The position numbers and the translations under genes are program-made. Shown in pieces: positions 3,412-53,823 of a stretch of DNA of 64,000 bases (position 1 is its first letter; the number at the start of each line of letters is the position of its first letter). The notes below the pieces were generated by a model. The model had not been told where the DNA came from. It ran no database searches and saw only the letters and a list, made by a program, of their open reading frames with translations. Source of the DNA: a virus. The stretch is taken from positions 1 to 64,000 of IMG/VR virus record IMGVR_UViG_3300012943_000031. One strand, 5' to 3'.

Positions 3412-3536
3412 GGTATATTATACTGTTTTTTGAGTTTTTTAATACGTCTCCTCCACTTGAAGGAAACTATCCAGTTGGTTACGATTGCAGTTAGAGCTAC
3501 AGCCATAACCAGATAGGTTACAACTAATAGGTTCAT
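3408..3536 (-). CDS. Small single-pass membrane protein (42 aa)
   Basis: MNLLVVTYLVMAVALTAIVTNWIVSFKWRRRIKKLKKQYNIP; its stop overlaps the terC ATG (ATGA). Confidence 0.55.
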   Translation of the reverse strand: MNLLVVTYLVMAVALTAIVTNWIVSFKWRRRIKKLKKQYNIP

Positions 3537-3541
3537 ATAAA

Positions 3542-4270
3542 CTATTTTATGAGTTGTTTAGCACGTGCCTGATGCACATACGAAGGGAACTCAGTTAACA
3601 ATAGTTTATACAGTTCATCATCTGTCTTCTGATCTAAATCATTGACAGAGAAGAAGTTGGCATTATCAATGTTCCTTCCCTGCATGTTATCCAGTTTTTC
3701 AAGGAAGTCAAATCCGGCACGTCCAATACCAACGAACTGGAAGAATATACCTGCATTGGAAGCTTCTTTAACAGCTTCTTCTACACCACTTCTGTTACTC
3801 GTATCACCATCAGTGATAAAAATAACATATACAGGAACATCCATTGTTTTATAGCCACCCAGTCCCAGTAGACCTTTCTTTTCAGCAAAGTCTTTTGTAA
3901 TGGCTTTGATAACAGGAGCATAATCTGTCCCACCCATGCTATATTTGCCAATTACTTTGCTATTAATATAGCCGGGAATGTTGCTGACAGTTAATGCTTC
4001 AGGGAGTTTCTTTACCCCATCGTCGAACAGGTAGAAGTCTACCTCACCATTGTCATCGAAAGCCATACCAATAGGTAATAATCTTTCAACTAAGGTTTGA
4101 ATTTTACCAGATGAATACATCATTGACATACTTCCTGAGAAGTCTAATGCCAATACAACTTGGGCTTTCTGGTGATTTAAGCCCAAGTCTTTACGCAAAT
4201 CCAAGACCTTCTTTTTTCTGAGGTCAAGCTGCTCTACAAGTGTAGGAGCAGGAGTTGTTGTTCCACCCAT
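3542..4270 (-). CDS. vWA domain protein, TerF C-terminal type
   Basis: VVLALDFSGSM, FDDNGEVD, GGTDYAP, FITDG, FFQFVGIG and FLEKLD...RNIDNANFF motifs. Confidence 0.9.
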   Translation of the reverse strand: MGGTTTPAPTLVEQLDLRKKKVLDLRKDLGLNHQKAQVVLALDFSGSMSMMYSSGKIQTLVERLLPIGMAFDDNGEVDFYLFDDGVKKLPEALTVSNIPGYINSKVIGKYSMGGTDYAPVIKAITKDFAEKKGLLGLGGYKTMDVPVYVIFITDGDTSNRSGVEEAVKEASNAGIFFQFVGIGRAGFDFLEKLDNMQGRNIDNANFFSVNDLDQKTDDELYKLLLTEFPSYVHQARAKQLIK

Positions 4271-4437
4271 AATTAGTGTTTTTTAAGATTAGAGGAGTTT
4301 GTTTTGTTACCATTTACTACTACCGGGAGACCTGTAATTTCTCTTTTCCTTTCTGGGAAGTGCTCTCCACTGAGAAGGTTTGAATGATCTAACACACGGT
4401 AAATCAAGCATATAGCTTGGGATGTGTATTTTAATTA

Positions 4438-6021: not shown

Positions 6022-6594
6022 TTACAGGTATGCCTGACGAAGGCTGTTGATGTCTCCATCTTTTCCTTCACCCAGTGCATTAAATTTCCATTCCCCATCT
6101 TTTTTGTAGAATTCCCCTACTAAGATTGCAGTTCTTGTACTGTAATCTTCATTCAGGTCATACTTAATGATGGATTGTGCAGGATTAGCCGGGTCAAATG
6201 CACGGCAGAATGCACCTTTTACTTGTCCAAAATTCTGTCCGGCCTGAGCATTATAGATGTTAACACCGATAACAACTTTTTCACACTCTGCTGGTAATTC
6301 ACCATGTGTAATAGTGATAACTTCATCATCACCATCACCAGCACCTGTTAAGTTGTCACCACTGTGCTTAACACCCGGTGAGCTTAAATGCCCAAAATAT
6401 ACAGGATTTGCACATTCCTTCCCCTGTGCATTCAACAAGAATGCAAATGCATCCAAGTCAAATGTAACTCCGGGTTGCAAATCCCATCCCAAACCAAATG
6501 CAAATGCAAGAAGTCCGGGGTTTGTTTTTGTCATGTCCACCTTTTGTCCCTTAACAAGGTTCAAAGTAGCTGGAGCTTGAGCTGTTGTACTCAT
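6022..6594 (-). CDS. terD: TerD family stress protein
   Basis: LVKGQKVD, GLGWD, FDLDA, HSGDNLTGAGDGDDE, QNFGQV and EWKFNALGEG motifs. Confidence 0.95.
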   Translation of the reverse strand: MSTTAQAPATLNLVKGQKVDMTKTNPGLLAFAFGLGWDLQPGVTFDLDAFAFLLNAQGKECANPVYFGHLSSPGVKHSGDNLTGAGDGDDEVITITHGELPAECEKVVIGVNIYNAQAGQNFGQVKGAFCRAFDPANPAQSIIKYDLNEDYSTRTAILVGEFYKKDGEWKFNALGEGKDGDINSLRQAYL

Positions 6595-7336: not shown

Positions 7337-7688
7337 CGTCTAGTAATTTTCGGTAAATTGATATTGATTGTCTTGCCTCAGAGACTAACCTACCATATTG
7401 TATACGCAGTAAATCTACCTCATGTCTCTCAATGACTAGATTCTTCTTTATATTATTGATGGTCTTCTCATTGTCATCAAGAGTGTCAATTCTATGTGCA
7501 GTGGATAGCAACATGATATTTGCTGTCAGCACAATAGCTAATGAAACAGCCAATATACAGGCATACAAGATGACAACAGATTGATTATGAGGGCCGGGTA
7601 AGAATGTTCCCATTGGATTCACTACACCAAATAGGAATACAGGAATTATCATAATATTGGATAATATAATCCATCTACGTAGTTTCAT
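7263..7688 (-). CDS. Hypothetical membrane protein
   Basis: Two N-terminal hydrophobic helices followed by a coiled coil. Confidence 0.6.
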   Translation of the reverse strand: MKLRRWIILSNIMIIPVFLFGVVNPMGTFLPGPHNQSVVILYACILAVSLAIVLTANIMLLSTAHRIDTLDDNEKTINNIKKNLVIERHEVDLLRIQYGRLVSEARQSISIYRKLLDDEEIRIQQAKKPSNKATETASGGT

Positions 7689-9054
7689 GGTTCCTCCTTT
7701 GTGGTTTAAATTGTTTAATCATTTGTTTCCAATTTCCCTCATTGAGAGTCCCCCTATCCTGCCATTCCAGAGCTTTACCCATTAATGAACCCATTTCTCT
7801 ACCTTGTGTATAACCAATTTCCATTAGTTTTTCACCAGTAACTATTGGCTCCATAGCGTTGGATTCCAATAATTCTTTAGCTCTGTGTTGTCCAATGTCT
7901 GGGGTATATTTAGCCAATGGAGGACGACCAGACAGGTCACACCTGCATACTTCAACCAGTTGTTCATAAGTTAAATTTTTTGCCATTAGTTTGCGTAATG
8001 TTCTCCTAATCACCTTTTCTGACACACCAGTACGAATCATATGCAATTCAACCATAGTTTCTATTTGTCTGATAGTTTTCTTATCAGCAAAATGAATACG
8101 GGTTAACATAGCACGTGTTGGTTTCCATCCTTCAGTCTCGTGACCAATAGACTTTATAGGTAAATCTTTGTTATAGAATACTCCTTTAGTTAAGGGATAA
8201 TCTCCTATAGTTGTAGTTGATACTTTACCTAAATCGTGACAAATCATACATATACGTGTAAACCAATCTTTTGCTTCATCTAGTGTATACATAGTATGCA
8301 TAAACACATCACCTTCTGGATGGTGTAATGGTGATTGTGGTACACCAATGCAATCATGTAGTTCCTTGAAATGATGTGGTAACCATCCAACCTGACGTAA
8401 GAACATAAAGAACACTGATGGCATTTCAGCAGTCTTGAGCATCTTATTTAACTCCATACCTACTCTCTCAGCAGATATATCGGTGGGTTCCATGCTCTTA
8501 CACATGGTAAACAACTCCACTGACGGTTGAAACTCAGGAAAACGTGCCAAGAAACGTGCTGCTCTATATACACGTAAAGAATCCTCCTTAAATGCTATAG
8601 ATGTGGGAGTAAGAAAACTATGTGCAATATGATCTCTTCCCATATATGGATCAACATACTCACCATGAATAACTTCTTTAGCTATTGCATTGATTGTCAA
8701 ATCCCTACGTGCTAAATCCTGTTCAATAGTTACTCCTTCAGTAACTACATCAAAATCTTTACGTGTACCACCAACTAATGTTTCCTTTCTAGCCATAGCA
8801 AAGTCAACTTTTTGACCATCTATATCTGCAATCCATACAGGAAATTTCTGTCCTACTAGTGGAGTTACAGATTCACAGTGTTCAAGGAGTATATCCTCAA
8901 CCTGTCTTGGGTTGGTAACCCCGACCAGACATATATCTATGTCATCAGTCTCGATTCCCATCAATTCATCTCTGACACATCCACCTACATAGTAGGATTT
9001 AATATGATGTTGAGACAAAATCTGGGCTATTTGTTTCAGTTTCTTCTCCAACAT
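7675..9054 (-). CDS. cca: Class II tRNA nucleotidyltransferase (CCA-adding enzyme) with HD domain
   Basis: YYVGGCVRD...DDIDI, ARKE, DLARRDLTINAIA, EDSLRVYRAARF, ISAERV, HHPEGDVFMHT and HDLGK motifs. Confidence 0.93.
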   Translation of the reverse strand: MLEKKLKQIAQILSQHHIKSYYVGGCVRDELMGIETDDIDICLVGVTNPRQVEDILLEHCESVTPLVGQKFPVWIADIDGQKVDFAMARKETLVGGTRKDFDVVTEGVTIEQDLARRDLTINAIAKEVIHGEYVDPYMGRDHIAHSFLTPTSIAFKEDSLRVYRAARFLARFPEFQPSVELFTMCKSMEPTDISAERVGMELNKMLKTAEMPSVFFMFLRQVGWLPHHFKELHDCIGVPQSPLHHPEGDVFMHTMYTLDEAKDWFTRICMICHDLGKVSTTTIGDYPLTKGVFYNKDLPIKSIGHETEGWKPTRAMLTRIHFADKKTIRQIETMVELHMIRTGVSEKVIRRTLRKLMAKNLTYEQLVEVCRCDLSGRPPLAKYTPDIGQHRAKELLESNAMEPIVTGEKLMEIGYTQGREMGSLMGKALEWQDRGTLNEGNWKQMIKQFKPQRRNHETT

Positions 9055-9253
9055 AGTCAATAATTTTATGGAGTTCAGTAACAGCTATTAACTTAACTGC
9101 TCTATCACCCGTTTGTTTTTCAATTTCCTGAATAATTTCCTTGACACTATGAAGATTCTTGAAAGACTCACCAAATGATATAGATTTCAAACCTCTCTCA
9201 CTGGTAATAACATGAGCTTCATATGTGTAAGCAACGAGATATAGTTCTTTCAT
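8999..9253 (-). CDS. Hypothetical protein
   Basis: ORF track; A-rich leader before the ATG. Confidence 0.55.
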   Translation of the reverse strand: MKELYLVAYTYEAHVITSERGLKSISFGESFKNLHSVKEIIQEIEKQTGDRAVKLIAVTELHKIIDYVGEETETNSPDFVSTSY

Positions 9254-10592: not shown

Positions 10593-11618
10593 TTATTGTA
10601 ATACTGTTGCTTCAGGCCAGTGTACTTCATCATCATGTACACTGATACCATGAAATTCAAGGAATGCTTGTTTAGCTTTATCCTTTAACTTCAGTAATGT
10701 CAACCCCATCTGAGGTTCATAACAATCCAATAACTTCACACCATCCGGGGCATGTATTGCTTTATCCTGTGGACGTAATCCATGCTCTTTCAGAACGGGA
10801 TGACCTGTGATGACAATATAATGGTCACCATATTCAGGTACATTTTCACTTCTTACTAAAGCAACATCACCAATACGTAGATACATACCTTCCTGTGCAG
10901 TAATACGTTGTACATCATCCACAGTCATTTGATAGGAATTATCAAAATACTCTACACTGAAGGTATTATCTCTACCATCACGTGTATGTTCTGATAGGTA
11001 ATGCAGTGATGCAGAATATCCTATAGATGTAAAATTGTGGATTAATGTTTGCCTTTTAAATGATTCATTTTTAGGACGTTGGTAAAGGGAGGCAAACATA
11101 CCCTCTCCAACAATAATAGTTTCAACAGGTCGTACTACGGCCTTATCTTTGTGTATCATCCGGTATGTGTTGACACGCATTTTACCGAATAATATTTCTT
11201 CATGAATATACCCTATAGCATGTCCATGAACAGGGGATGTATGTCCATCACCCCAACGTGCCATAACTAATTCAACACCCTCCTTGTAAAGAGGTTTGTC
11301 TTCGTTTTTGAGTAGGACAGGAGCTTCCAGTGCTAAAATAGTTCTGTTAAAACCATTCTTACCCGGTGGCATATCTTTAGCCACCCAAGGAGCTATCCTT
11401 AATTTTCCTGCCAGTTTGGTCATAATTGATTTAGTTAGTTCGACCTTTTCTAACAGTAGGGGATCATCATTTCTCAGATGTGGCATTTCATCAAAGAAGT
11501 TTTCATACCCATGTTTGTACATCCTTCTTTCGTAGGGCTGACCATCATACATGATCTTAAGGATGTCTTCTTCTGGTGTGTTGGAGCTAACCAACGTTTT
11601 CATCATTAGTGTTTCCAT
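10593..11618 (-). CDS. Cupin, cysteine dioxygenase-like domain plus an unknown C-terminal domain
   Basis: ELVMARWGDGHTSPVHGH...ILFGKM...Y...LIH...ASLHY resembles the CDO WxPGxxSxxHxH...H...SLHxY pattern. Confidence 0.7.
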   Translation of the reverse strand: METLMMKTLVSSNTPEEDILKIMYDGQPYERRMYKHGYENFFDEMPHLRNDDPLLLEKVELTKSIMTKLAGKLRIAPWVAKDMPPGKNGFNRTILALEAPVLLKNEDKPLYKEGVELVMARWGDGHTSPVHGHAIGYIHEEILFGKMRVNTYRMIHKDKAVVRPVETIIVGEGMFASLYQRPKNESFKRQTLIHNFTSIGYSASLHYLSEHTRDGRDNTFSVEYFDNSYQMTVDDVQRITAQEGMYLRIGDVALVRSENVPEYGDHYIVITGHPVLKEHGLRPQDKAIHAPDGVKLLDCYEPQMGLTLLKLKDKAKQAFLEFHGISVHDDEVHWPEATVLQ

Positions 11619-12338: not shown

Positions 12339-12532
12339 TACTTTTTTGATTTTACTAAACCAGTAATATACAAGGTAGAACCAAGTACAATAATAATAAG
12401 ACCGGGCCAACCTCTTTTAAAGGTTTCATATACCATATAAGTATATTGACTCCATAAACCTCTTGCAAGGTATTGGTATAATATAGCACCTGCAATAATA
12501 AGAAGTGCACCTACAATTTTTAATGACTTCAT
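12338..12532 (-). CDS. Small two-TM membrane protein
   Basis: MKSLKIVGALLIIAGAIL...; the longer start in the track overlaps a tRNA. Confidence 0.55.
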   Translation of the reverse strand: MKSLKIVGALLIIAGAILYQYLARGLWSQYTYMVYETFKRGWPGLIIIVLGSTLYITGLVKSKK

Positions 12533-12546
12533 AATAATGTTTTTAG

Positions 12547-12620
12547 ACTTCACGACAGGATTCGAACCTGTGAACACTTGGTTTGCTGCCAAGGTGTTTG
12601 GGCCACTCACACACATGAAG
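12547..12620 (-). tRNA. tRNA-Cys(GCA), atypical A33
   Basis: Acceptor CTTCATG/CGTGAAG, U73, anticodon arm CTTGG-CAGCAAA-CCAAG, T-arm ACAGG-TTCGAAT-CCTGT. Confidence 0.8.
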
Positions 12621-12772
12621 GTATGTCAGGGAGAGAACTTCCATTTTAATGTCCTCCTTAGTCCTGACAAATAAGATTAAACCCCTATAGAAATAGGGGT
12701 CGGTATTAAGGGACTATTCCAATGAAGAAATGACTACGGTGATATAGTAGATTTAGTTAATCTACCTTGTGT

Positions 12773-48047: not shown

Positions 48048-48123
48048 CGGGTAGTGGGAGAATGGTTAGTCCACTATGTTTGGGGCATAGAAAATGTCAG
48101 TTCGAGTCTGATCTACCCGACCA
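48048..48123 (+). tRNA. tRNA-Pro(TGG)
   Basis: Cloverleaf, anticodon arm CTATG-TTTGGGG-CATAG, CCA encoded. Confidence 0.92.
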
Positions 48124-48129
48124 AATAAT

Positions 48130-48205
48130 GCCAGTGTAGCACAACAGGTAGTGCAGTACTCTTGTAAAGTAAAGGTTGCAAGTTCGATTCTTGTCACTGG
48201 CTCCA
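48130..48205 (+). tRNA. tRNA-Thr(TGT)
   Basis: Loop CTTGTAA, CCA encoded. Confidence 0.92.
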
Positions 48206-48213
48206 AATTATAT

Positions 48214-48287
48214 GGCCGTATAGCCAAGTGGTAAGGCACATGTCTGCAAAACTTTGATCCCCAGTTCGAATCTGGGTACGGCTTCCA
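48214..48287 (+). tRNA. tRNA-Cys(GCA)
   Basis: Loop CTGCAAA, U73, CCA encoded. Confidence 0.92.
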
Positions 48288-48290
48288 TAT

Positions 48291-48365
48291 GGTGCACTAA
48301 CTCAATGGTAGAGTTCCTCCCTGAAAAGGAGGGTGTTCCCAGTTCAAGTCTGGGGTGTACCACCA
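48291..48365 (+). tRNA. tRNA-Phe(GAA)
   Basis: Loop CTGAAAA, CCA encoded. Confidence 0.92.
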
Positions 48366-48368
48366 CAT

Positions 48369-48439
48369 ACGGGTATGGTGAAATGGTATCATAACAGTCT
48401 CCAAAACTGCTGTTCAGGGTTCGAATCCTTGTACCCGTG
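48369..48439 (+). tRNA. tRNA-Trp(CCA)
   Basis: Loop CTCCAAA, G73. Confidence 0.9.
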
Positions 48440-48491
48440 CTTTTTCTTATTCCCACATTTCCCTGAGAAATCAAACTTGTGGGTTTCGTAT

Positions 48492-48565
48492 TGTCTCATG
48501 GTGTAATGGCAACATAAGAAGCTTTGACCTTCTTGTTTCAGGTTCGAGCCCTGATGGGACATCCA
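48492..48565 (+). tRNA. tRNA-Gln(TTG)
   Basis: AGAAG-CTTTGAC-CTTCT, CCA encoded. Confidence 0.9.
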
Positions 48566-48570
48566 AATAT

Positions 48571-48641
48571 TACCTTATAGTGTAATGGTAACACACCACT
48601 CTCTGAAAGTGTTGTTTAAGGTTCGAGTCCTTATAAGGTAA
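48571..48641 (+). tRNA. tRNA-Gln(CTG)
   Basis: Loop CTCTGAA. Confidence 0.9.
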
Positions 48642-48643
48642 CT

Positions 48644-48717
48644 GTGACTATAGCTTAATGGTTTAGAGCCCTTGGTTGTGACCCAAGGTAGTGTCAGTTC
48701 GAATCTGATTAGTCACC
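48644..48717 (+). tRNA. tRNA-His(GTG)
   Basis: CTTGG-TTGTGAC-CCAAG, C73; T rather than G at -1. Confidence 0.9.
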
Positions 48718-48722
48718 TAAAT

Positions 48723-48793
48723 GCCCTATTAGTATAATGGAAGTATCTGAGAATACGAATCTCAGGGTAGGAGTTCAAATCTTCTATAGGGTT
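48723..48793 (+). tRNA. tRNA-Arg(ACG)
   Basis: TGAGA-ATACGAA-TCTCA. Confidence 0.85.
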
Positions 48794-48820
48794 CTGGTAC
48801 ACTTCTTGCTATATGAAAGT

Positions 48821-48997
48821 ATGGTAATGAAAGGTAAAAATAAACTAGAAAGAATGGAATTACGTGCTGCTAAAAGATTTAACAGACGTTCTAAGAAAAT
48901 AAAATTCCATCTTACTAATGATTGGAGTTGGACATTTCCTATCCCTAAAGAGGGAATTCCAAAAATAGTTGAAGAAATATTTGGAAACGGCAAATAA
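48821..48997 (+). CDS. Small basic hypothetical protein
   Basis: MVMKGKNKLERMELRAAKRFNRR...; the longer start in the track overlaps tRNA-Arg. Confidence 0.5.
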   Translation: MVMKGKNKLERMELRAAKRFNRRSKKIKFHLTNDWSWTFPIPKEGIPKIVEEIFGNGK

Positions 48998-49011
48998 ATG
49001 TCGTATCTTTG
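48980..49011 (+). promoter_or_regulatory. Promoter of tRNA operon 2
   Basis: TTTG-N20-TATCTTTG. Confidence 0.85.
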
Positions 49012-49038
49012 TATTATAAAATTTAAAAGCAGCAAATA

Positions 49039-49113
49039 ATGTACTTAATAAATATGATAGTGGATAGAATTAATGGGGCAGAGAAATCTGGCTCTGGACT
49101 TCTATTGTCATAA
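49039..49113 (+). CDS. Leader peptide 2 (attenuator), MYLINMIVDRINGAEKSGSGLLLS
   Basis: Codons 4-16 give I,N,M,V,D,R,G,A,E,K, exactly the ten amino acids of the downstream tRNAs. Confidence 0.8.
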   Translation: MYLINMIVDRINGAEKSGSGLLLS

Positions 49114-49177
49114 TCATAGTACTGATTACCAATATTTTAGAAGCCCAGAGCCTACGAAAGTTAGCTCTGGGTTTTTT
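49053..49177 (+). terminator. Attenuator 2
   Basis: 1:2 TATGATAGTGGA / TCTATTGTCATA. 2:3 GGCTCTGGACTTCTA 49090-104 / TAGAAGCCCAGAGCC 49138-152 (14 of 15 pair). 3:4 AGCCCAGAGC / GCTCTGGGTT with U-tract. Confidence 0.85.
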
Positions 49178-49180
49178 AAT

Positions 49181-49253
49181 GCCCTTGTAGCAAACTGGTT
49201 GTAGGCAATAGTCTTTTAAACTATGGGGTCTGGTTCGATTCCAGACGGGGGTA
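49181..49253 (+). tRNA. tRNA-Lys(TTT)
   Basis: ATAGT-CTTTTAA-ACTAT. Confidence 0.88.
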
Positions 49254-49261
49254 CACAATAT

Positions 49262-49333
49262 GCAGGATTAATTCAATGGTAGAAATCCATCTTTACATGG
49301 TGGAAGCTGGGAGTTCGAGTCTCTCATCCTGTA
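49262..49333 (+). tRNA. tRNA-Val(TAC)
   Basis: CCATC-TTTACAT-GGTGG. Confidence 0.88.
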
Positions 49334-49339
49334 CAATAA

Positions 49340-49411
49340 CTCTCTATAGCACAATGGAAGTGTAACTGCCTTCTAAGCAGTTTGGTATAGGTTCGAATCC
49401 TATTAGAGAGT
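49340..49411 (+). tRNA. tRNA-Arg(TCT)
   Basis: ACTGC-CTTCTAA-GCAGT. Confidence 0.9.
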
Positions 49412-49456
49412 CAGGTCAGTTTTCCAATTCTGCGTGGAGTACAAAATTGGATATAT

Positions 49457-49528
49457 TCCTCATTAGCTCAATGGTAGAGCGCAAAGCTGTTAACTTTGGA
49501 GATTTAGGTTCGAGTCCTAAGTGGGGAG
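49457..49528 (+). tRNA. tRNA-Asn(GTT)
   Basis: CAAAG-CTGTTAA-CTTTG, G73. Confidence 0.92.
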
Positions 49529-49538
49529 CATAATTACA

Positions 49539-49613
49539 TGTAGGGTGGACTGGAGATGGTTCCAGCTTGGTCTCATAAGCCAAATGACAGGGGTTCGAAT
49601 CCCTTCCCTGCAT
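49539..49613 (+). tRNA. tRNA with CAT anticodon (Met; initiator vs elongator unresolved)
   Basis: TTGGT-CTCATAA-GCCAA. Confidence 0.85.
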
Positions 49614-49618
49614 CTATA

Positions 49619-49771
49619 CTGTAAGGTGGTGAAATAGGCAGACACATCCACTTGTCTCGTGGACACAGATAAAGAAATAGATTAGGTATAATGGGGTTGA
49701 CCACTAATGTTTAACTTATTGTGTATCTAATTGAATCTCTGTATGAGTGGTTCAAATCCCTCCCTTACAGC
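49619..49771 (+). ncRNA. tRNA-like RNA (GTC anticodon) with an ~80-nt hairpin variable arm
   Basis: Acceptor CTGTAAGG/CCTTACAG, D-arm GTG-AAATAGGCAGA-CAC, TCCAC-TTGTCTC-GTGGA, long hairpin 49664-49744, T-loop TTCAAAT. Confidence 0.7.
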
Positions 49772-49776
49772 AACAT

Positions 49777-49850
49777 TGCACATTAGCCAAGAGGTCTAAG
49801 GCATCACTCTCATAAGGTGACATTCATGAGTTCGAATCTCATATGTGCAA
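49777..49850 (+). tRNA. tRNA with CAT anticodon (Met or lysidine-Ile2)
   Basis: TCACT-CTCATAA-GGTGA, A73. Confidence 0.88.
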
Positions 49851-49879
49851 CATTTGATAATTTTCCTTATATTTGTAAA

Positions 49880-50347
49880 ATGGAAAAGTATTTCAGAACA
49901 GAGCAAGGAGAAAGAGTAAATATAGTTGAACACACTTTGGAACAAATCCAGAAGTGGCCCAACCTAGAGATTTACATAGCAACAGACTCTCAAGACCAAG
50001 GTGGAAAGAGTAGATATGCTACAGTAATTGTCTACAGATATGGGAAAAGAGGTGCTCACTATATATACTTTAGAGAAGACGTACCACGTTGTAAGGACAT
50101 GTATACTCGTCTATATGATGAGGCTGTTCGTACAATTGATACAGCACAGTTAATAGACAGTGAGATACCTGTTAAGTTTGCCGGGTTAGAGTTTGACTAC
50201 AATAACCTACCAAGACATAACAGTAACAAATTACTCTCTTCTGTAAGAGGATGGGTAACAGGATTAAATTACAATGCTGTCTTCAAAGGTGATGAATTAG
50301 TAGCTGCAAAAGCTGCTGACCATGTTTGTAGACACAAGAATATATAA
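49880..50347 (+). CDS. RNase H-like YkuK/DUF458 family protein
   Basis: IYIATDSQ...YATVIV...RLYDEAVRTI...DYN...AAKAAD motifs; ATG after TATATTTG. Confidence 0.8.
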   Translation: MEKYFRTEQGERVNIVEHTLEQIQKWPNLEIYIATDSQDQGGKSRYATVIVYRYGKRGAHYIYFREDVPRCKDMYTRLYDEAVRTIDTAQLIDSEIPVKFAGLEFDYNNLPRHNSNKLLSSVRGWVTGLNYNAVFKGDELVAAKAADHVCRHKNI

Positions 50348-50382
50348 GAGATGGATTGCAGCACTCTTTAAAATGCTGATTT

Positions 50383-50456
50383 GCAGAGGTAGTTAAATGG
50401 TATAATGCCTTCCTTCCAAGTAGGATTTGGGAGTTCGATTCTCCTCCTCTGCTCCA
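50383..50456 (+). tRNA. tRNA-Gly(TCC)
   Basis: Loop CTTCCAA, U73, CCA encoded. Confidence 0.92.
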
Positions 50457-50457
50457 T

Positions 50458-50529
50458 GCATTAGTAGCTCAATGGTAGAGTACTACCTTGCCAAGGTAGG
50501 AGTTGACAGTTCGAATCTGTTCTAGTGCT
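50458..50529 (+). tRNA. tRNA-Gly(GCC)
   Basis: CTACC-TTGCCAA-GGTAG. Confidence 0.92.
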
Positions 50530-50535
50530 CAATAA

Positions 50536-50609
50536 CATGCTGTCATCTAATGGCTTAGGATAACGGACTTTCAATTCGTTCATGTCGGGTTCAATTCCCA
50601 CCAGCATGA
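50536..50609 (+). tRNA. tRNA-Glu(TTC)
   Basis: ACGGA-CTTTCAA-TTCGT. Confidence 0.88.
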
Positions 50610-50632
50610 CTAACAACTAAAGTCGAAGGACA

Positions 50633-51031
50633 ATGAGTAAACAAAGTAACCAAAAGAAGACTGAACAATTGGGTATGCCAATTGGTACAGCAAGTAATAG
50701 ATTGAGGAAATCAATTATCTTTAATCTGTTAAAGAAAGCAAATGAGAATTTCTGTTTCCAATGTGGAGCAGAAATAGAATTAGAGAATGAATTATCAATA
50801 GAACATAAGACTCCATATCTGGATTCTGAAGACCCACAAGGTCTGTTCTTTGATTTAGATAATATAGCTTTTTCTCACCTGTCATGCAATGTAGGTGCTG
50901 CAAGACAGACTCATAGAGTAAAGAATCATGGCCTGACTCTCTACAAAGATGGTTGTAGATGTGGTATTTGTGTGACAGCACAAAAAGAATCTTGGTCAAA
51001 ATATGATAAGAAGAGAAGAGTAAAAACGTAG
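50633..51031 (+). CDS. HNH endonuclease (free-standing, homing-type)
   Basis: CFQCG...LSIEHKTP...NIAFSHLSCN and C-terminal GCRCGIC. Confidence 0.8.
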   Translation: MSKQSNQKKTEQLGMPIGTASNRLRKSIIFNLLKKANENFCFQCGAEIELENELSIEHKTPYLDSEDPQGLFFDLDNIAFSHLSCNVGAARQTHRVKNHGLTLYKDGCRCGICVTAQKESWSKYDKKRRVKT

Positions 51032-51103
51032 GTGTAGTGTAACGGTTTAGCATATCTGCCTGTCACGCAGACGGTAGGAGTTCGAATCTCCCATCTACGG
51101 CCA
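51027..51103 (+). tRNA. tRNA-Asp(GTC), apparent 8/4 fold
   Basis: CGTAGGTG/CATCTACG 8-bp acceptor plus G-CCA, 4-bp T-stem GGAG/CTCC, anticodon arm TCTGC-CTGTCAC-GCAGA. Confidence 0.88.
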
Positions 51104-51105
51104 AT

Positions 51106-51178
51106 GTTGTTGTAGCTTAATGGTTAAAGCTCATGTCTTATACACATGTGAGTGAGAGTTCGAGTCTCTCCAACAACA
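51106..51178 (+). tRNA. tRNA-Ile(TAT)
   Basis: CATGT-CTTATAC-ACATG. Confidence 0.88.
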
Positions 51179-51187
51179 CACAAATAT

Positions 51188-51262
51188 GTTGATATAGCTC
51201 AATGGTGGAGCACTTGTCTGATACACAAGAGGATGAAGGTTCGAGTCCCTCTATCAACACCA
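51188..51262 (+). tRNA. tRNA-Ile(GAT)
   Basis: CTTGT-CTGATAC-ACAAG, CCA encoded. Confidence 0.92.
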
Positions 51263-51265
51263 TAT

Positions 51266-51338
51266 GGGGGTGAAGTTCTAGTGGATGAACACCTGTCTTG
51301 CACACAGGAAGTTGTGGATTCGAGTTTCACCACCTCCA
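51266..51338 (+). tRNA. tRNA-Ala(TGC)
   Basis: G3.U70 pair, CCTGT-CTTGCAC-ACAGG. Confidence 0.9.
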
Positions 51339-51341
51339 CAT

Positions 51342-51372
51342 AACCTACTGATAATCAGTCAGTAGGTTTTTT
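51342..51372 (+). terminator. Terminator ending tRNA operon 2
   Basis: AACCTACTGA-taatcag-TCAGTAGGTT-TTTT. Confidence 0.8.
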
Positions 51373-51409
51373 ATTTGGTAAACTGGCAGGATTTTTGTAC
51401 CTTTATAGT

Positions 51410-51883
51410 ATGATAACAGCAATAGTTATGCTCAGTATAGCACTTATAGTGGCAATTCTTCTTCTCCTTAGAAAGGAGGAATGTGAAGAGTCAGGATATA
51501 TTGAAATATCATTTATTATTAATAATACAAAAATAACAGGAAAAAACATGGCATTAACAGCATTCCCACAACAAAAAACACCTTTCATTCTACAGCCGGT
51601 AGATAGAAAAGGTAATCCAGCACAAGTTGAAGCTGGAACAGTAGTTTTCACAGTAGATGATCCATCAATTGCAGAAGTTCAGGTAGACCCAACAAATGAG
51701 TTGGCAGGTACTATCATAACTAAAGCAGTAGGTGTAACACAGATTAATTATTCTGCTGATGCTGACTTAGGAGAAGGTGTAACAACTATTTCAGGTTTTG
51801 ACGCAATTGAAGTTAAAGCTGAACAAGCAGTTGGATTTGGTATCACTTTTGGCCCATCAGAGGACATAGAGGAAACACCTTAA
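51410..51883 (+). CDS. Membrane-anchored Ig-like (Big-2-like) protein
   Basis: TTTG-N20-TACCTTTA promoter, N-terminal TM, FTVDDPSIAEV...ITKAVGVTQI pattern; an alternative ATG lies at 51548. Confidence 0.6.
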   Translation: MITAIVMLSIALIVAILLLLRKEECEESGYIEISFIINNTKITGKNMALTAFPQQKTPFILQPVDRKGNPAQVEAGTVVFTVDDPSIAEVQVDPTNELAGTIITKAVGVTQINYSADADLGEGVTTISGFDAIEVKAEQAVGFGITFGPSEDIEETP

Positions 51884-51891
51884 AAGAAAAA

Positions 51892-51923
51892 TTTGGAATT
51901 TTATTCTCAGTACCGTATATTTG
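51892..51923 (+). promoter_or_regulatory. Promoter of the suppressor tRNA / Pth2 unit
   Basis: TTTG-N20-TATATTTG, overlapped by a 12-bp inverted repeat (51908-51941). Confidence 0.8.
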
Positions 51924-51934
51924 TGAAAGTATAC

Positions 51935-52006
51935 GGTACTGTAGTTTAATGGCAAAACAGCAGTCTCTAAAACTGAATAGTGTGGGTTCGATCCCCATCA
52001 GTACCA
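51935..52006 (+). tRNA. Amber suppressor tRNA (CTA anticodon)
   Basis: Acceptor GGTACTG/CAGTACC, A73, CAGT-CTCTAAA-ACTG, GTGGG-TTCGATC-CCCAT. Confidence 0.88.
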
Positions 52007-52023
52007 CAATTAAACCAAATACA

Positions 52024-52500
52024 ATGAGTAAGTAGATGGAAATCCAGAAACTGGTAACTGTGACCAGAACTGACTTACCTGAAGGTTATCAGGCAGTACA
52101 GTCAACACATGCAGCAATTGATTTTGTTTTTGAACATCCTACACGTGCTGGCCCTTGGCATAAAAACAGTAATACGTTAGTGATGTTAACAGTAAAGGAC
52201 ACGAAAGGTCTCCTTCACCTAATGAGGAAGTGTGATTATCTGTCTATAGCTTATACTGTTTTCAGGGAACCAGATATTGGTAACCAAATCACAGCCATCT
52301 GTATGGAGCCTCATGAGGAGGTTTACAAGATGGTTAGTAAGCTACCTTTATTAATACCAAAAACACAATCAAATGAATACCAAGACACTATCAATCAAAG
52401 CCAAGTTAGCCAACCAAGTGAGAACAATCTTCTACAAGAAGTGGGATGTGACGAAAATCACAGAACACGAACAGAAGAGGATGTTGAGAGAGTTAGCTGA
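52024..52500 (+). CDS. Pth2-family peptidyl-tRNA hydrolase-like protein, with in-frame TAG at codon 4
   Basis: KLVTVTRTDLPEGYQAVQSTHA...LVMLTV...FREPDIGNQITAI fits the PTH2 pattern. ATG AGT AAG TAG ATG at 52024-52038, with the A-rich leader before the first ATG. Confidence 0.75.
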
Positions 52501-52648
52501 GTTAACTAAAGAAGTTCACTATGAGTTAAATCTCTACAAGGGTAAGAGAAGAGATAAGAAAATACTCTTAGAAAAGAGGTTAGAAGCCCCTCAAACAAAG
52601 ACCATGAAGAAGAAACTGAAAGGTCACAGAAAAGAAATTTCAAAATAA
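52373..52648 (+). CDS. Basic hypothetical protein
   Basis: ORF track; AAAAACACAATCAA leader. Confidence 0.55.
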   Translation: MNTKTLSIKAKLANQVRTIFYKKWDVTKITEHEQKRMLRELAELTKEVHYELNLYKGKRRDKKILLEKRLEAPQTKTMKKKLKGHRKEISK

Positions 52649-52649
52649 A

Positions 52650-52681
52650 TTTGGAAATCGTGAAAAAAGGTTGTATATTTG
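52650..52681 (+). promoter_or_regulatory. Promoter of tRNA operon 3
   Basis: TTTG-N20-TATATTTG. Confidence 0.85.
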
Positions 52682-52685
52682 CAGT

Positions 52686-52733
52686 ATGAAAATAACATCA
52701 ACATATAGTTCCTTGTCGTTACTCTATAGCTAA
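52686..52733 (+). CDS. Leader peptide 3 (attenuator), MKITSTYSSLSLLYS
   Basis: Codons 7-15 are only Y,S,L, the amino acids of the downstream tRNAs; ATG 4 nt after the -7 box. Confidence 0.8.
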   Translation: MKITSTYSSLSLLYS

Positions 52734-52814
52734 TAGAGCCGGGAATACTATGTGTCAAAAATAACTATCTTGATTTTACATAACATGACCCGGTATTTCT
52801 ATACTGGGTTTTTT
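52702..52814 (+). terminator. Attenuator 3
   Basis: 1:2 CATATAGTTCC / GGAATACTATGTG with inner CTCTAT/ATAGAG. 2:3 CCGGG 52739-43 / CCCGG 52789-93, plus TATGTG/TACATA. 3:4 ACCCGGTAT-ttct-ATACTGGGT-TTTTT. Confidence 0.78.
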
Positions 52815-52821
52815 GTTTTAT

Positions 52822-52895
52822 GGCATTGTGATGGAACTGGGATACATACCTGTCTTAGAAACAGTTTTTTGTGGGTTCGAATCCCACCTTTGCCA
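52822..52895 (+). tRNA. tRNA-Leu(TAG), short variable region
   Basis: CTGT-CTTAGAA-ACAG; acceptor stem has two T.T mismatches. Confidence 0.8.
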
Positions 52896-52898
52896 CAT

Positions 52899-52977
52899 GC
52901 TCCTATGGTGGAACGGTATACACGTCAGACTTAAAATCTGATCTTAATTGATGAGAGTTCGAATCTCTCTAGGAGCA
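52899..52977 (+). tRNA. tRNA-Leu(TAA)
   Basis: TCAGA-CTTAAAA-TCTGA, A73. Confidence 0.9.
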
Positions 52978-52978
52978 C

Positions 52979-53204
52979 AACAACCATAAACTATCGAGTT
53001 ACAACTTGCTGGGTACTTACTGGGTACTTGCGGGGTGTAATTAGGAAACTCAGCACATCTCTGCTTAAAATGGGAGGACTAGCAATCCGTTATTACCAAA
53101 GAGGATGAAACTCAAACAGACTAAGAAGGTGAGCAGTTCTATGAAGTCGGGTTAGAGGATTAGACAAATGATAGTTGATACAGAAAGCTGGTTATTGGGT
53201 TGTT
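52979..53204 (+). ncRNA. rnpB: Minimal RNase P RNA (~226 nt)
   Basis: P1 AACAACC/GGTTGTT, P2 AACTATCG/TGATAGTT, CR-I AGGAAACTCAGC, TAGACAAATG, CR-V ACAGAAAGCTGGTTA; P4 AAC(T)CAGC/GCTGGTT with the bulged U. Confidence 0.82.
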
Positions 53205-53209
53205 AAATT

Positions 53210-53299
53210 GGTGGGCCCCAGATGACAGAGGTACTCCGTCTTGAAAACGGCTATAACGGTAATCATTCCGTTGTAAGGGTTGGACTCCCTTGCCCACCT
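53210..53299 (+). tRNA. tRNA-Ser(TGA), atypical D-arm and T-loop
   Basis: GGTGGGC/GCCCACC, CCGT-CTTGAAA-ACGG, long variable arm, T-loop TTGGACT. Confidence 0.78.
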
Positions 53300-53306
53300 C
53301 AAATAA

Positions 53307-53396
53307 GGAGAATAGACGAATATTGGTTTGTCGTAACTACCTGCTAAGTAGTTCTGTGTAACAGCAGTAAGAGTTCAATTCTCTTATTCTCCGCCA
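53307..53396 (+). tRNA. tRNA-Ser(GCT)
   Basis: ACTAC-CTGCTAA-GTAGT, variable arm, G73, CCA encoded. Confidence 0.9.
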
Positions 53397-53400
53397 ATAT

Positions 53401-53473
53401 GGGATAGACAGCAGGGCACTGTAGACGGTCTGTAAAACCGAACTATGTAGAGTTTCGAATACTCCCTATCCCA
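53401..53473 (+). tRNA. tRNA-Tyr(GTA), short variable region
   Basis: GGGATAG/CTATCCC, A73, CGGT-CTGTAAA-ACCG. Confidence 0.8.
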
Positions 53474-53512
53474 CATTAACTTTTCTTTAACAGAAAAAAG
53501 TCTTACCTTTGT

Positions 53513-53537
53513 AGCCTCCTTCGGGAGGTTATTTTTT
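53513..53537 (+). terminator. Terminator ending tRNA operon 3
   Basis: AGCCTCC-TTCG-GGAGGTT-ATTTTTT. Confidence 0.75.
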
Positions 53538-53823
53538 GCCACCCAGTTATGGTACTGAGGTAAACGCCTACACGAGGTAGGATAGTTCCTTACAGAAGTT
53601 GGATTGGTAGCCCTAAATAAGGGTGAGATTTTCTCCAATAGTGGCGCAATGTTTTGAGTAAGAGGTAGTTGGTATCCAAGGGATTGGTCATTTCTATGAC
53701 GTGTGAGGAGGATACTGGGGTAACAATGCACTGGCTATCTTCAAGTGAGAAACAGTAAGTTAAAAAATTCATAAGGGATTGGTGTGTCTAATTGATGGCA
53801 CATTAATTGATTACATATTAAGT

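Follow-up and report, generated by a model that had tools for sequence, protein, structure and literature searches.

Two ribozymes are universal. One of them is RNase P RNA, which trims newly made tRNAs and whose gene counts as part of cellular housekeeping. In the bacterial enzymes the S-domain, which reads the tRNA elbow, matters for efficient cleavage of pre-tRNA. The translation toolkit carried by large phages comprises tRNAs, tmRNA, a CCA-adding enzyme and aminoacyl-tRNA synthetases. Strongly reduced RNase P RNAs are known from archaea, where the type T RNA of the Thermoproteaceae (Pyrobaculum and its relatives) measures about 200 nt, has nearly lost the specificity domain and has kept the catalytic core (PMC3579882). 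The isolated C-domain of the E. coli RNA is catalytically active both with and without protein; it needs a P6-like pairing to be efficient and, with the S-domain removed, can do without P18 (PMC5839562).

The DNA analysed here, referred to as the window, is a stretch of 64 kb from an IMG/VR virus record of 107 kb. Positions 52979–53204 of its plus strand are probably a tailed-phage gene whose product is an RNase P RNA of bacterial class A in reduced form, and a role in the 5' maturation of phage tRNAs, assisted by the RnpA protein of the host, is proposed for this RNA. The phage origin that the initial annotation had given to the RNA is borne out by the virus record itself and by the genes for the terminase large subunit, the portal and the major head protein, which lie at 31.9–40 kb of the same window.

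Identity and architecture of the RNA

The identity of the RNA was examined using a covariance model (R1) of 155 positions and 29 pairs, which runs from CR-I to the 3' strand of P4 and was trained on 28 viral sequences, with the window sequence and the loci L001 and L002 left out. R1 matched the window at 53041–53194 over model positions 1–155 of 155, with 125.5 bits and an E-value of 5e-27. The next best match in the 64-kb window scored 14.7 bits, and a search of the 107-kb record with R1 revealed a single copy. The initial annotation had named covariance-model support as the check on its reading of this element as a phage RNase P ribozyme, and such support was obtained with a model whose training set did not contain the window sequence. 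The Rfam RNase P models in local mode, which it had proposed for this check, gave only a sub-threshold match. This match was to RF00373 (RNaseP_arch; 19.9 bits, E-value 0.002 in 1.1 kb, threshold 84) and was aligned over CR-I and CR-V. RF00010, with a gathering score of 100 bits, gave no match in the window, nor in the record at E-values up to 10, and no member of the Rfam clan CL00002 reached its gathering score on the window. Mini RNase P RNA genes are missed by standard annotation because they score below the Rfam thresholds. Taken by itself, the Rfam outcome would have spoken against the element, and the comparative analysis reversed this verdict. The support for the window RNA as an RNase P RNA is comparative, coming from the alignment of related sequences and not from Rfam.

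The positions of the structural elements and of the neighbouring genes are given in Table 1. P1, P2, P4 with its bulged U, CR-I and CR-V were each found by hand where the initial annotation had placed them, and its size of about 226 nt was right. The window RNA retains P1–P5, the P4 and P6 pseudoknots, J5/15, the P15-L15(GGU)-P16-P17 arm, CR-I, CR-IV and CR-V, and is without P8–P14 (CR-II/III) and without P18. Most relatives measure 185–215 nt from P1 to P1, and the greater length of the window RNA is due to a lineage-specific long P3. The length of P3 ranges from about 10 to 46 nt across the family and is about 46 nt in the window, where the hairpin is stretched by a near-tandem duplication. 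This duplication reads CUGGGUACUU-A-CUGGGUACUU at 53011–53032 (+) and is quasi-palindromic.

Table 1. Positions of the RNase P RNA and its elements, of neighbouring genes and signals in the window, and of RNase P RNAs matching RF00010 on other viral contigs (A2, alignment of 32 viral RNAs; R1, covariance model)
Feature	Position	Strand	Basis and remarks
Promoter-like site	52651–52679	+	Consensus scan
Leader terminator	52787–52810	+	In front of the tRNA / RNase P RNA unit; consensus scan
tRNA-Leu(UAG) and tRNA-Leu(UAA), upstream, co-oriented	52822–52978	+	ARAGORN, Rfam
tRNA-Leu(UAA), 5' neighbour of the RNase P RNA	52899–52978	+	ARAGORN, Rfam
Whole mini RNase P RNA, P1 5' strand to P1 3' strand	52979–53204	+	Sequence; R1 match at 53041–53194
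P1	52979–52985 (AACAACC) with 53198–53204 (GGUUGUU)	+	10 of 10 P1 columns changed on both sides in A2
P2	52990–52995 (ACUAUC) with 53170–53175 (GAUAGU)	+	99.5% paired, 4 of 6 pairs changed on both sides (n = 32)
P3, long hairpin	52996–53042	+	MFE fold; base of P3 covaries
CR-I, AGGAAACUCAGC	53043–53054	+	Includes the P4 5' strand, 53047–53054
P4 pseudoknot	53047–53049 and 53051–53054 with 53187–53193 (GCUGGUU)	+	5' strand AAC(U)CAGC with the bulge in brackets; 7 of 7 pairs Watson-Crick
P5	53056–53059 (CAUC) with 53104–53107 (GAUG)	+	98.4% paired, 4 of 4 pairs changed on both sides
P6 pseudoknot	53061–53067 (CUGCUUA) with L17 loop 53130–53136 (UGAGCAG)	+	4-bp core 89.1% paired
Specificity-domain stub, 28 nt in place of P7–P14	53071–53098	+	Stems 91.1% and 87.5% paired, covarying
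P7-like stem	53071–53073 with 53096–53098	+	3 bp here, 5 bp in most relatives; 91.1% paired
Stub hairpin	53076–53078 with 53086–53088	+	3 bp; 87.5% paired
J5/15 (AAA)	53108–53110	+	Two A's (A135, A136) invariant in A2
P15-L15-P16-P17 arm	53111–53157	+	P15 and P16 covary
P15	53111–53113 with 53155–53157	+	95.7% paired
P16	53119–53122 with 53145–53148	+	93.8% paired
P17	53125–53127 with 53137–53139	+	Part of the P15-L15-P16-P17 arm
GGU of the L15 3' side (GGGUUA)	53150–53152	+	Between P16 and P15; GGU near-invariant in the family
CR-IV, AGACAAAUGA	53162–53171	+	Columns almost all invariant in A2; terminal GA starts the P2 3' strand
CR-V (ACAGAA, 53180–53185) and P4 3' strand (53187–53193)	53180–53193	+	ACAGAA invariant
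tRNA-Ser(UGA)-like, 3' neighbour	53210–53300	+	Acceptor, anticodon, variable and T arms by hand; odd D region
Tyr(GUA)-like tRNA gene	53401–53475	+	Short variable arm
Intrinsic terminator closing the tRNA / RNase P RNA unit	53511–53540	+	9-bp stem, then T run
L090 RNase P RNA	4044–4368		325 nt; RF00010 match
L109 RNase P RNA	3463–3786		324 nt; RF00010 match
L162 RNase P RNA	12457–12742		286 nt; RF00010 match
L197 RNase P RNA	6188–6457		270 nt; RF00010 match
L190 RNase P RNA	10596–10802	+	207 nt; RF00010 118.5 bits

The catalytic centre carries the features that define RF00010. A P4 helix with a bulged U lies between a GAGGAAAGUC-like CR-I and the ACAGAA of CR-V, and the AGAUGAAUGA-like CR-IV that leads from J18/2 into P2 is present as AGACAAAUGA. 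The bulged nucleotide of the window P4 is U53050, which we take to be the counterpart of E. coli U69. In the 32 sequences of the alignment A2, which is described below, 97.7% of the P4 cells were paired and 6 of 8 pairs had changed on both sides, while the AA of CR-I, the bulged U and the C that follows it were all invariant. A P6 pseudoknot between J5/7 and the loop of P17 is typical of, and specific to, bacterial type A RNAs. The core of P6 was formed by different pair types in the 32 sequences (CG 12, UA 10, GC 3, AU 2 and the like). An extension of P5 (53060–53062 with 53098–53100) was considered and dropped, since its 5' strand forms the covarying P6.

Most of the specificity domain is gone, as had been claimed, and its place at 53071–53098 is taken by a P7-like stem and a single hairpin. 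A test of this segment for membership of the P7–P14 specificity domain found neither the CR-II nor the CR-III motif. The two stems of the stub enclose a conserved asymmetric internal loop, GA / GUUAUUA (GA / GUUnnnA in the family), in which A53075 and A53095 are invariant. P18 is missing as well, with 4 nt running from the 3' strand of P15 to CR-IV, and among the relatives an insert at the P18 place is retained only in L212, L152 and L190.

The AA of CR-I, the bulged U, the AA of J5/15, the GGU of L15, CR-IV and ACAGAA are known to serve catalysis or substrate binding, beyond folding, and all of these residues are invariant or nearly so in the viral RNAs. By their position, the invariant A's of J5/15 would match the A248 region of the E. 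coli RNA. The GGU of L15 presumably occupies the position of E. coli G292-G293-U294, which pair with the tRNA CCA end. Judged by this position and by what is established for the E. coli enzyme, the GGU would bind the CCA end of the tRNA in the phage RNA too.

Other readings of the segment were discarded. The plus strand has no open reading frame of 40 or more amino acids spanning the element, and on the minus strand the only overlap is that of a 45-aa GTG frame with the 3' end of the RNA. Neither a tmRNA nor a tRNA was found by ARAGORN at 52979–53204. Folding of the single window sequence was uninformative (z-score of −0.65 on the plus strand and 0.05 on the minus strand).

Covariation and distribution of the viral RNAs

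Relatives of the window RNA were collected from IMG/VR using two pattern scans, which were filtered for a perfect P4 with a bulged U, the GGA context and a complementary P2. Most of the raw loci were noise, such as L003 in a coding region, and were removed by this filter, leaving at least 39 distinct RNAs on viral contigs. A BLAST search of the GenBank phages with the window RNA revealed one relative, in the 642-kb phage LR756502.1, which differs from the window by three compensatory double changes in P4. BLAST searches of the GenBank phages with L090, L120 and L161 gave no matches. The alignment A2 was built from 32 of the listed RNAs, which measure 198–246 bases as extracted, including flanks of 15–17 bases on each side.

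RNAalifold recovered P1, P3, P4, the P7-like stem, P15 and P16 from A2 unaided. When the full structure with both pseudoknots was imposed, 50 of the 56 pairs had changed on both sides, and every multi-pair helix showed compensatory changes among the 32 homologues. Standard pairs filled 89.9% of the pair cells, a level that was reached in none of 500 shuffles of the partners; the share was 60.8% for shuffled partners and 31.8–44.3% when the partners were slid by 1–3 columns. The covariation score was 0.743, compared to 0.205 for shuffled partners and at most 0.171 for slid ones.

The mini RNA was also identified in named phage genomes. R1 gave 133.6 bits in LR756502 (642 kb), 128.8 bits in LR756501 (735 kb) and 121.8 bits in LR745206 (635 kb). 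The cultured Stenotrophomonas phage vB_SmaS-DLP_6 gave 91 bits (KU682439.2, 105814–106006, +; 2349–2541 of locus L341). The DLP_6 copy lies in an unannotated gap of the tRNA region, directly upstream of tRNA-Arg-CCG. The phage genomes in which this reduced architecture recurs measure between 168 kb and 735 kb. A spacing-pattern scan of 185,579 prokaryote species, with one genome per species, gave about five mini-type candidates. Three of these (L255, L282 and L299) are on MAG contigs of 7–13 kb and the other two are L304 and L308; the remaining matches were ordinary full-length rnpB genes that the pattern had caught incidentally. The mini form belongs essentially to phages.

Five of the viral RNAs passed the RF00010 threshold. 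L090, L109, L162 and L197 scored 146–188 bits and are near-full-length class A RNAs, whereas L190 is a short RNA that has P8, P9 and P18 and has lost P10–P14 and P15–P17. All five are located in tRNA-rich regions of phages, and in two cases a tmRNA is close by. The RNase P RNAs of phages range from near-full-length class A to the mini form, and L190 suggests that miniaturisation has taken at least two independent routes. Separately, tmRNA genes were noted on the viral contigs L090 and L120. Because the Rfam threshold for class A is exceeded by the longer relatives and by the one of 207 nt, the window RNA is assigned to bacterial class A as a reduced member. The identity proposed in the initial annotation is therefore upheld by the family covariance model, by covariation through P1–P7 and P15–P17 including both pseudoknots, and by the relatives that pass RF00010.

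tRNA context and proposed function

The RNA had been described as lying between tRNAs, and this was confirmed. Its 5' neighbour is tRNA-Leu(UAA); on the 3' side follows a tRNA-Ser(UGA)-like sequence, called by neither ARAGORN nor Rfam. There is 1 nt between the discriminator base of the tRNA-Leu and P1, and there are 5 nt between the 3' strand of P1 and the tRNA-Ser(UGA)-like sequence, so that the RNase P RNA is at once the 3' trailer of the first and the 5' leader of the second. The order along the strand is a promoter-like site, a leader terminator, the two tRNA-Leu genes, the RNase P RNA, the tRNA-Ser-like sequence, a tRNA-Ser, the tRNA-Tyr-like sequence and the terminator. The Ser(UGA)-like and Tyr(GUA)-like sequences fold as cloverleaves or near-cloverleaves and remained uncalled by ARAGORN or the Rfam tRNA model even at E-values up to 10. 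Among the 39 viral loci listed, tRNA genes occur within 3 kb at 26, always co-oriented with the RNA, and a tRNA lies within 60 nt at 15; at the other 13 there is no tRNA gene within 3 kb.

The tRNA genes of the window at 48048–53475 (+) are separated by spacers of mostly 1–9 nt, which are often AU-rich. With such spacers the 5' leaders presented to RNase P are extremely short and are usually made up of the 3' end of the tRNA before. CCA is encoded by about 10 of the 26 called tRNAs and is not encoded by about 16. A 461-aa open reading frame at 7675–9060 (−) of the window matched PF01743 (CCA-adding enzyme / poly(A) polymerase family) with 75.6 bits, which indicates that the phage also supplies an enzyme for the tRNA 3' end. 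The tRNA region also contains an amber-suppressor tRNA with the anticodon CUA at 51935–52007 (+), called as Pyl by ARAGORN.

A search for the protein partner of the RNA with PF00825 (RnpA) found none in the record of the window, which is 72% complete. None was found either in 37 IMG/VR records with a mini RNA, four of them judged complete, or in DLP_6. The absence of RnpA from complete genomes suggests that most such phages use the host protein, and we infer the same partnership with host RnpA for the window RNA. Two huge phages encode RnpA themselves and carry the mini RNase P RNA elsewhere in the same genome. In LR756502 the match scored 52 bits and contains the RNR motif (LR756502.1, 525189–525473; 1501–1785 of locus L342), and in LR745206 it scored 49 bits (LR745206.1, 76444–76752; locus L345). 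The presence of RnpA and the mini RNA in the same genomes supports a role in RNase P.

The initial annotation had suggested that the RNA might mature atypical phage tRNAs or substitute for a host RNase P RNA that is damaged. In the mechanism proposed here, the RNase P RNA would be transcribed within a single unit, from promoter to terminator, together with its neighbouring tRNAs. Its 5' end would be generated by 3' processing of tRNA-Leu, and its 3' end would arise when RNase P cuts at the start of the tRNA that follows. The RNA would assemble with the host RnpA protein, and the resulting mini RNase P would cut the 5' leaders of the densely packed and partly atypical phage tRNAs, supplementing or replacing the host RNase P during infection. 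In the more general form of this proposal, large phages make their own half-size RNase P RNA, which works with host RnpA, or with phage RnpA in the biggest of them, as a virus-specific, elbow-blind enzyme that processes tRNA 5' ends and matures phage tRNAs independently of the host RNase P RNA. We give this general form about an even chance of being correct. Under it, the ribozyme would be excised from the shared transcript by tRNA processing, partly through its own kind of activity. An enzyme without the elbow-reading domain would depend more heavily on the protein, the acceptor stem and the contact between CCA and L15. With the S-domain missing, the activity of the window RNA might be poor or redirected. 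The phage RNAs have kept P6 and lost P18, which is the pattern seen in the E. coli C-domain experiments, and by this analogy an active phage ribozyme is plausible.

Two alternatives grant the RNA a function other than tRNA maturation. It might act as a sponge or competitor, binding host RnpA or pre-tRNAs non-productively and so throttling host tRNA maturation or diverting the protein. Most phages with the RNA are without RnpA, so that it would have to draw the protein away from the RNase P RNA of the host, and without the S-domain its turnover could be badly impaired. Sequestration alone does not account for the strict retention and covariation of the L15 GGU, the AA of J5/15, P6, P15–P17 and the bulged U of P4, which are unneeded for protein binding. 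Nor does it account for the location of the RNA in the midst of phage tRNA genes, whose transcripts need RNase P. The addition of RnpA in two huge phages also fits the building of an enzyme better than its sequestering, and we regard a sponge as improbable. An active ribozyme directed mainly at non-tRNA or tRNA-like RNAs of phage or host, such as mRNA leaders, tRNA-like punctuation or host transcripts, has a similarly small chance of being correct. The missing S-domain is compatible with such substrates, as are the 13 of the 39 listed members that lie away from tRNA genes, and C-domain constructs cut simple hairpin model substrates (PMC5839562). Against this stand the strong, same-strand association with tRNA arrays and the preservation of the GGU that binds CCA.

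The RNA could also be the relic of an rnpB gene that a phage once captured from a host and that is now decaying without function, which would explain why it is shorter than bacterial rnpB and does not reach the Rfam thresholds. A relic would not be expected to persist as more than 30 divergent copies with an unchanging set of core nucleotides and with compensatory changes that preserve every helix, nor to recur with the same reduced architecture in phages of 168 kb to 735 kb. This explanation is very improbable and, given the covariation, already close to refuted. The pattern of conservation makes all three alternatives less likely than the maturation of phage tRNAs by a phage-encoded RNase P.

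Comparison with known RNase P RNAs

The window RNA is a known ribozyme in a new type of host, a virus, and in a new natural architecture. No description of a phage-encoded RNase P RNA was found in the open-access papers and bioRxiv preprints to which the search was limited, and it is not described in a 2024 review of RNase P, in the huge-phage paper that released the LR7565xx genomes or in a 2026 paper on RNase P evolution. A conserved viral lineage of RNase P RNA would extend the toolkit of large phages to the maturation of tRNA 5' ends. If the proposed function is correct, no RNase P encoded by a virus would precede this one, which would also be the natural counterpart of the laboratory C-domain ribozyme, and phage tRNA operons with spacers of 1–9 nt and non-canonical tRNAs could mature without the host RNase P RNA. 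It also raises the question of whether phage RNA and host RnpA form a chimeric holoenzyme. As an unannotated member is carried by the cultured phage DLP_6, this question is open to ordinary genetics and biochemistry.

The reduced RNase P RNAs of organelles, such as RPM1 of yeast mitochondria, are also derived from bacteria, belong to small genomes and are often encoded beside tRNA genes. They have usually lost far more, often P15–P17 and P6, and work with organelle-specific proteins. Unlike these, the phage form has a complete C-domain. With the class A RNA of bacteria (E. coli M1 RNA, rnpB; RF00010) it shares P1–P5, the bulged U of P4, P6, J5/15, the P15-L15-P16-P17 arm with GGU, and CR-I, CR-IV and CR-V. 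It differs in length, at about 226 nt (mostly 185–215 nt in the relatives) compared to roughly 330–400 nt for class A, in being without P8–P14, CR-II, CR-III and P18, and in its position within a viral tRNA operon.

The type T RNA of the Thermoproteaceae resembles the phage RNA in its size of about 200 nt, the near-complete loss of the specificity domain and the retained catalytic core, but it is archaeal and works with archaeal proteins (PMC3579882). The phage RNA, in contrast, has the bacterial P6, the GGU loop of L15 and a CR-IV of bacterial type, and it co-occurs with a bacterial-type RnpA in two huge phages. The engineered C-domain of E. coli (Eco CP RPR; Mao et al., 2018, PMC5839562) is likewise a catalytic domain without an S-domain. 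While that RNA is a deletion construct made in the laboratory, the phage RNAs make up a lineage conserved in nature, with a stub of P7 plus a hairpin and conserved loop nucleotides. This lineage would show, as tested by evolution, the size to which an RNase P RNA of bacterial type can shrink and the contacts that it cannot lose, and its retention of P6 and the L15 GGU, together with the loss of P18 and P8–P14, agrees with the deletion studies of E. coli M1 RNA (PMC5839562).
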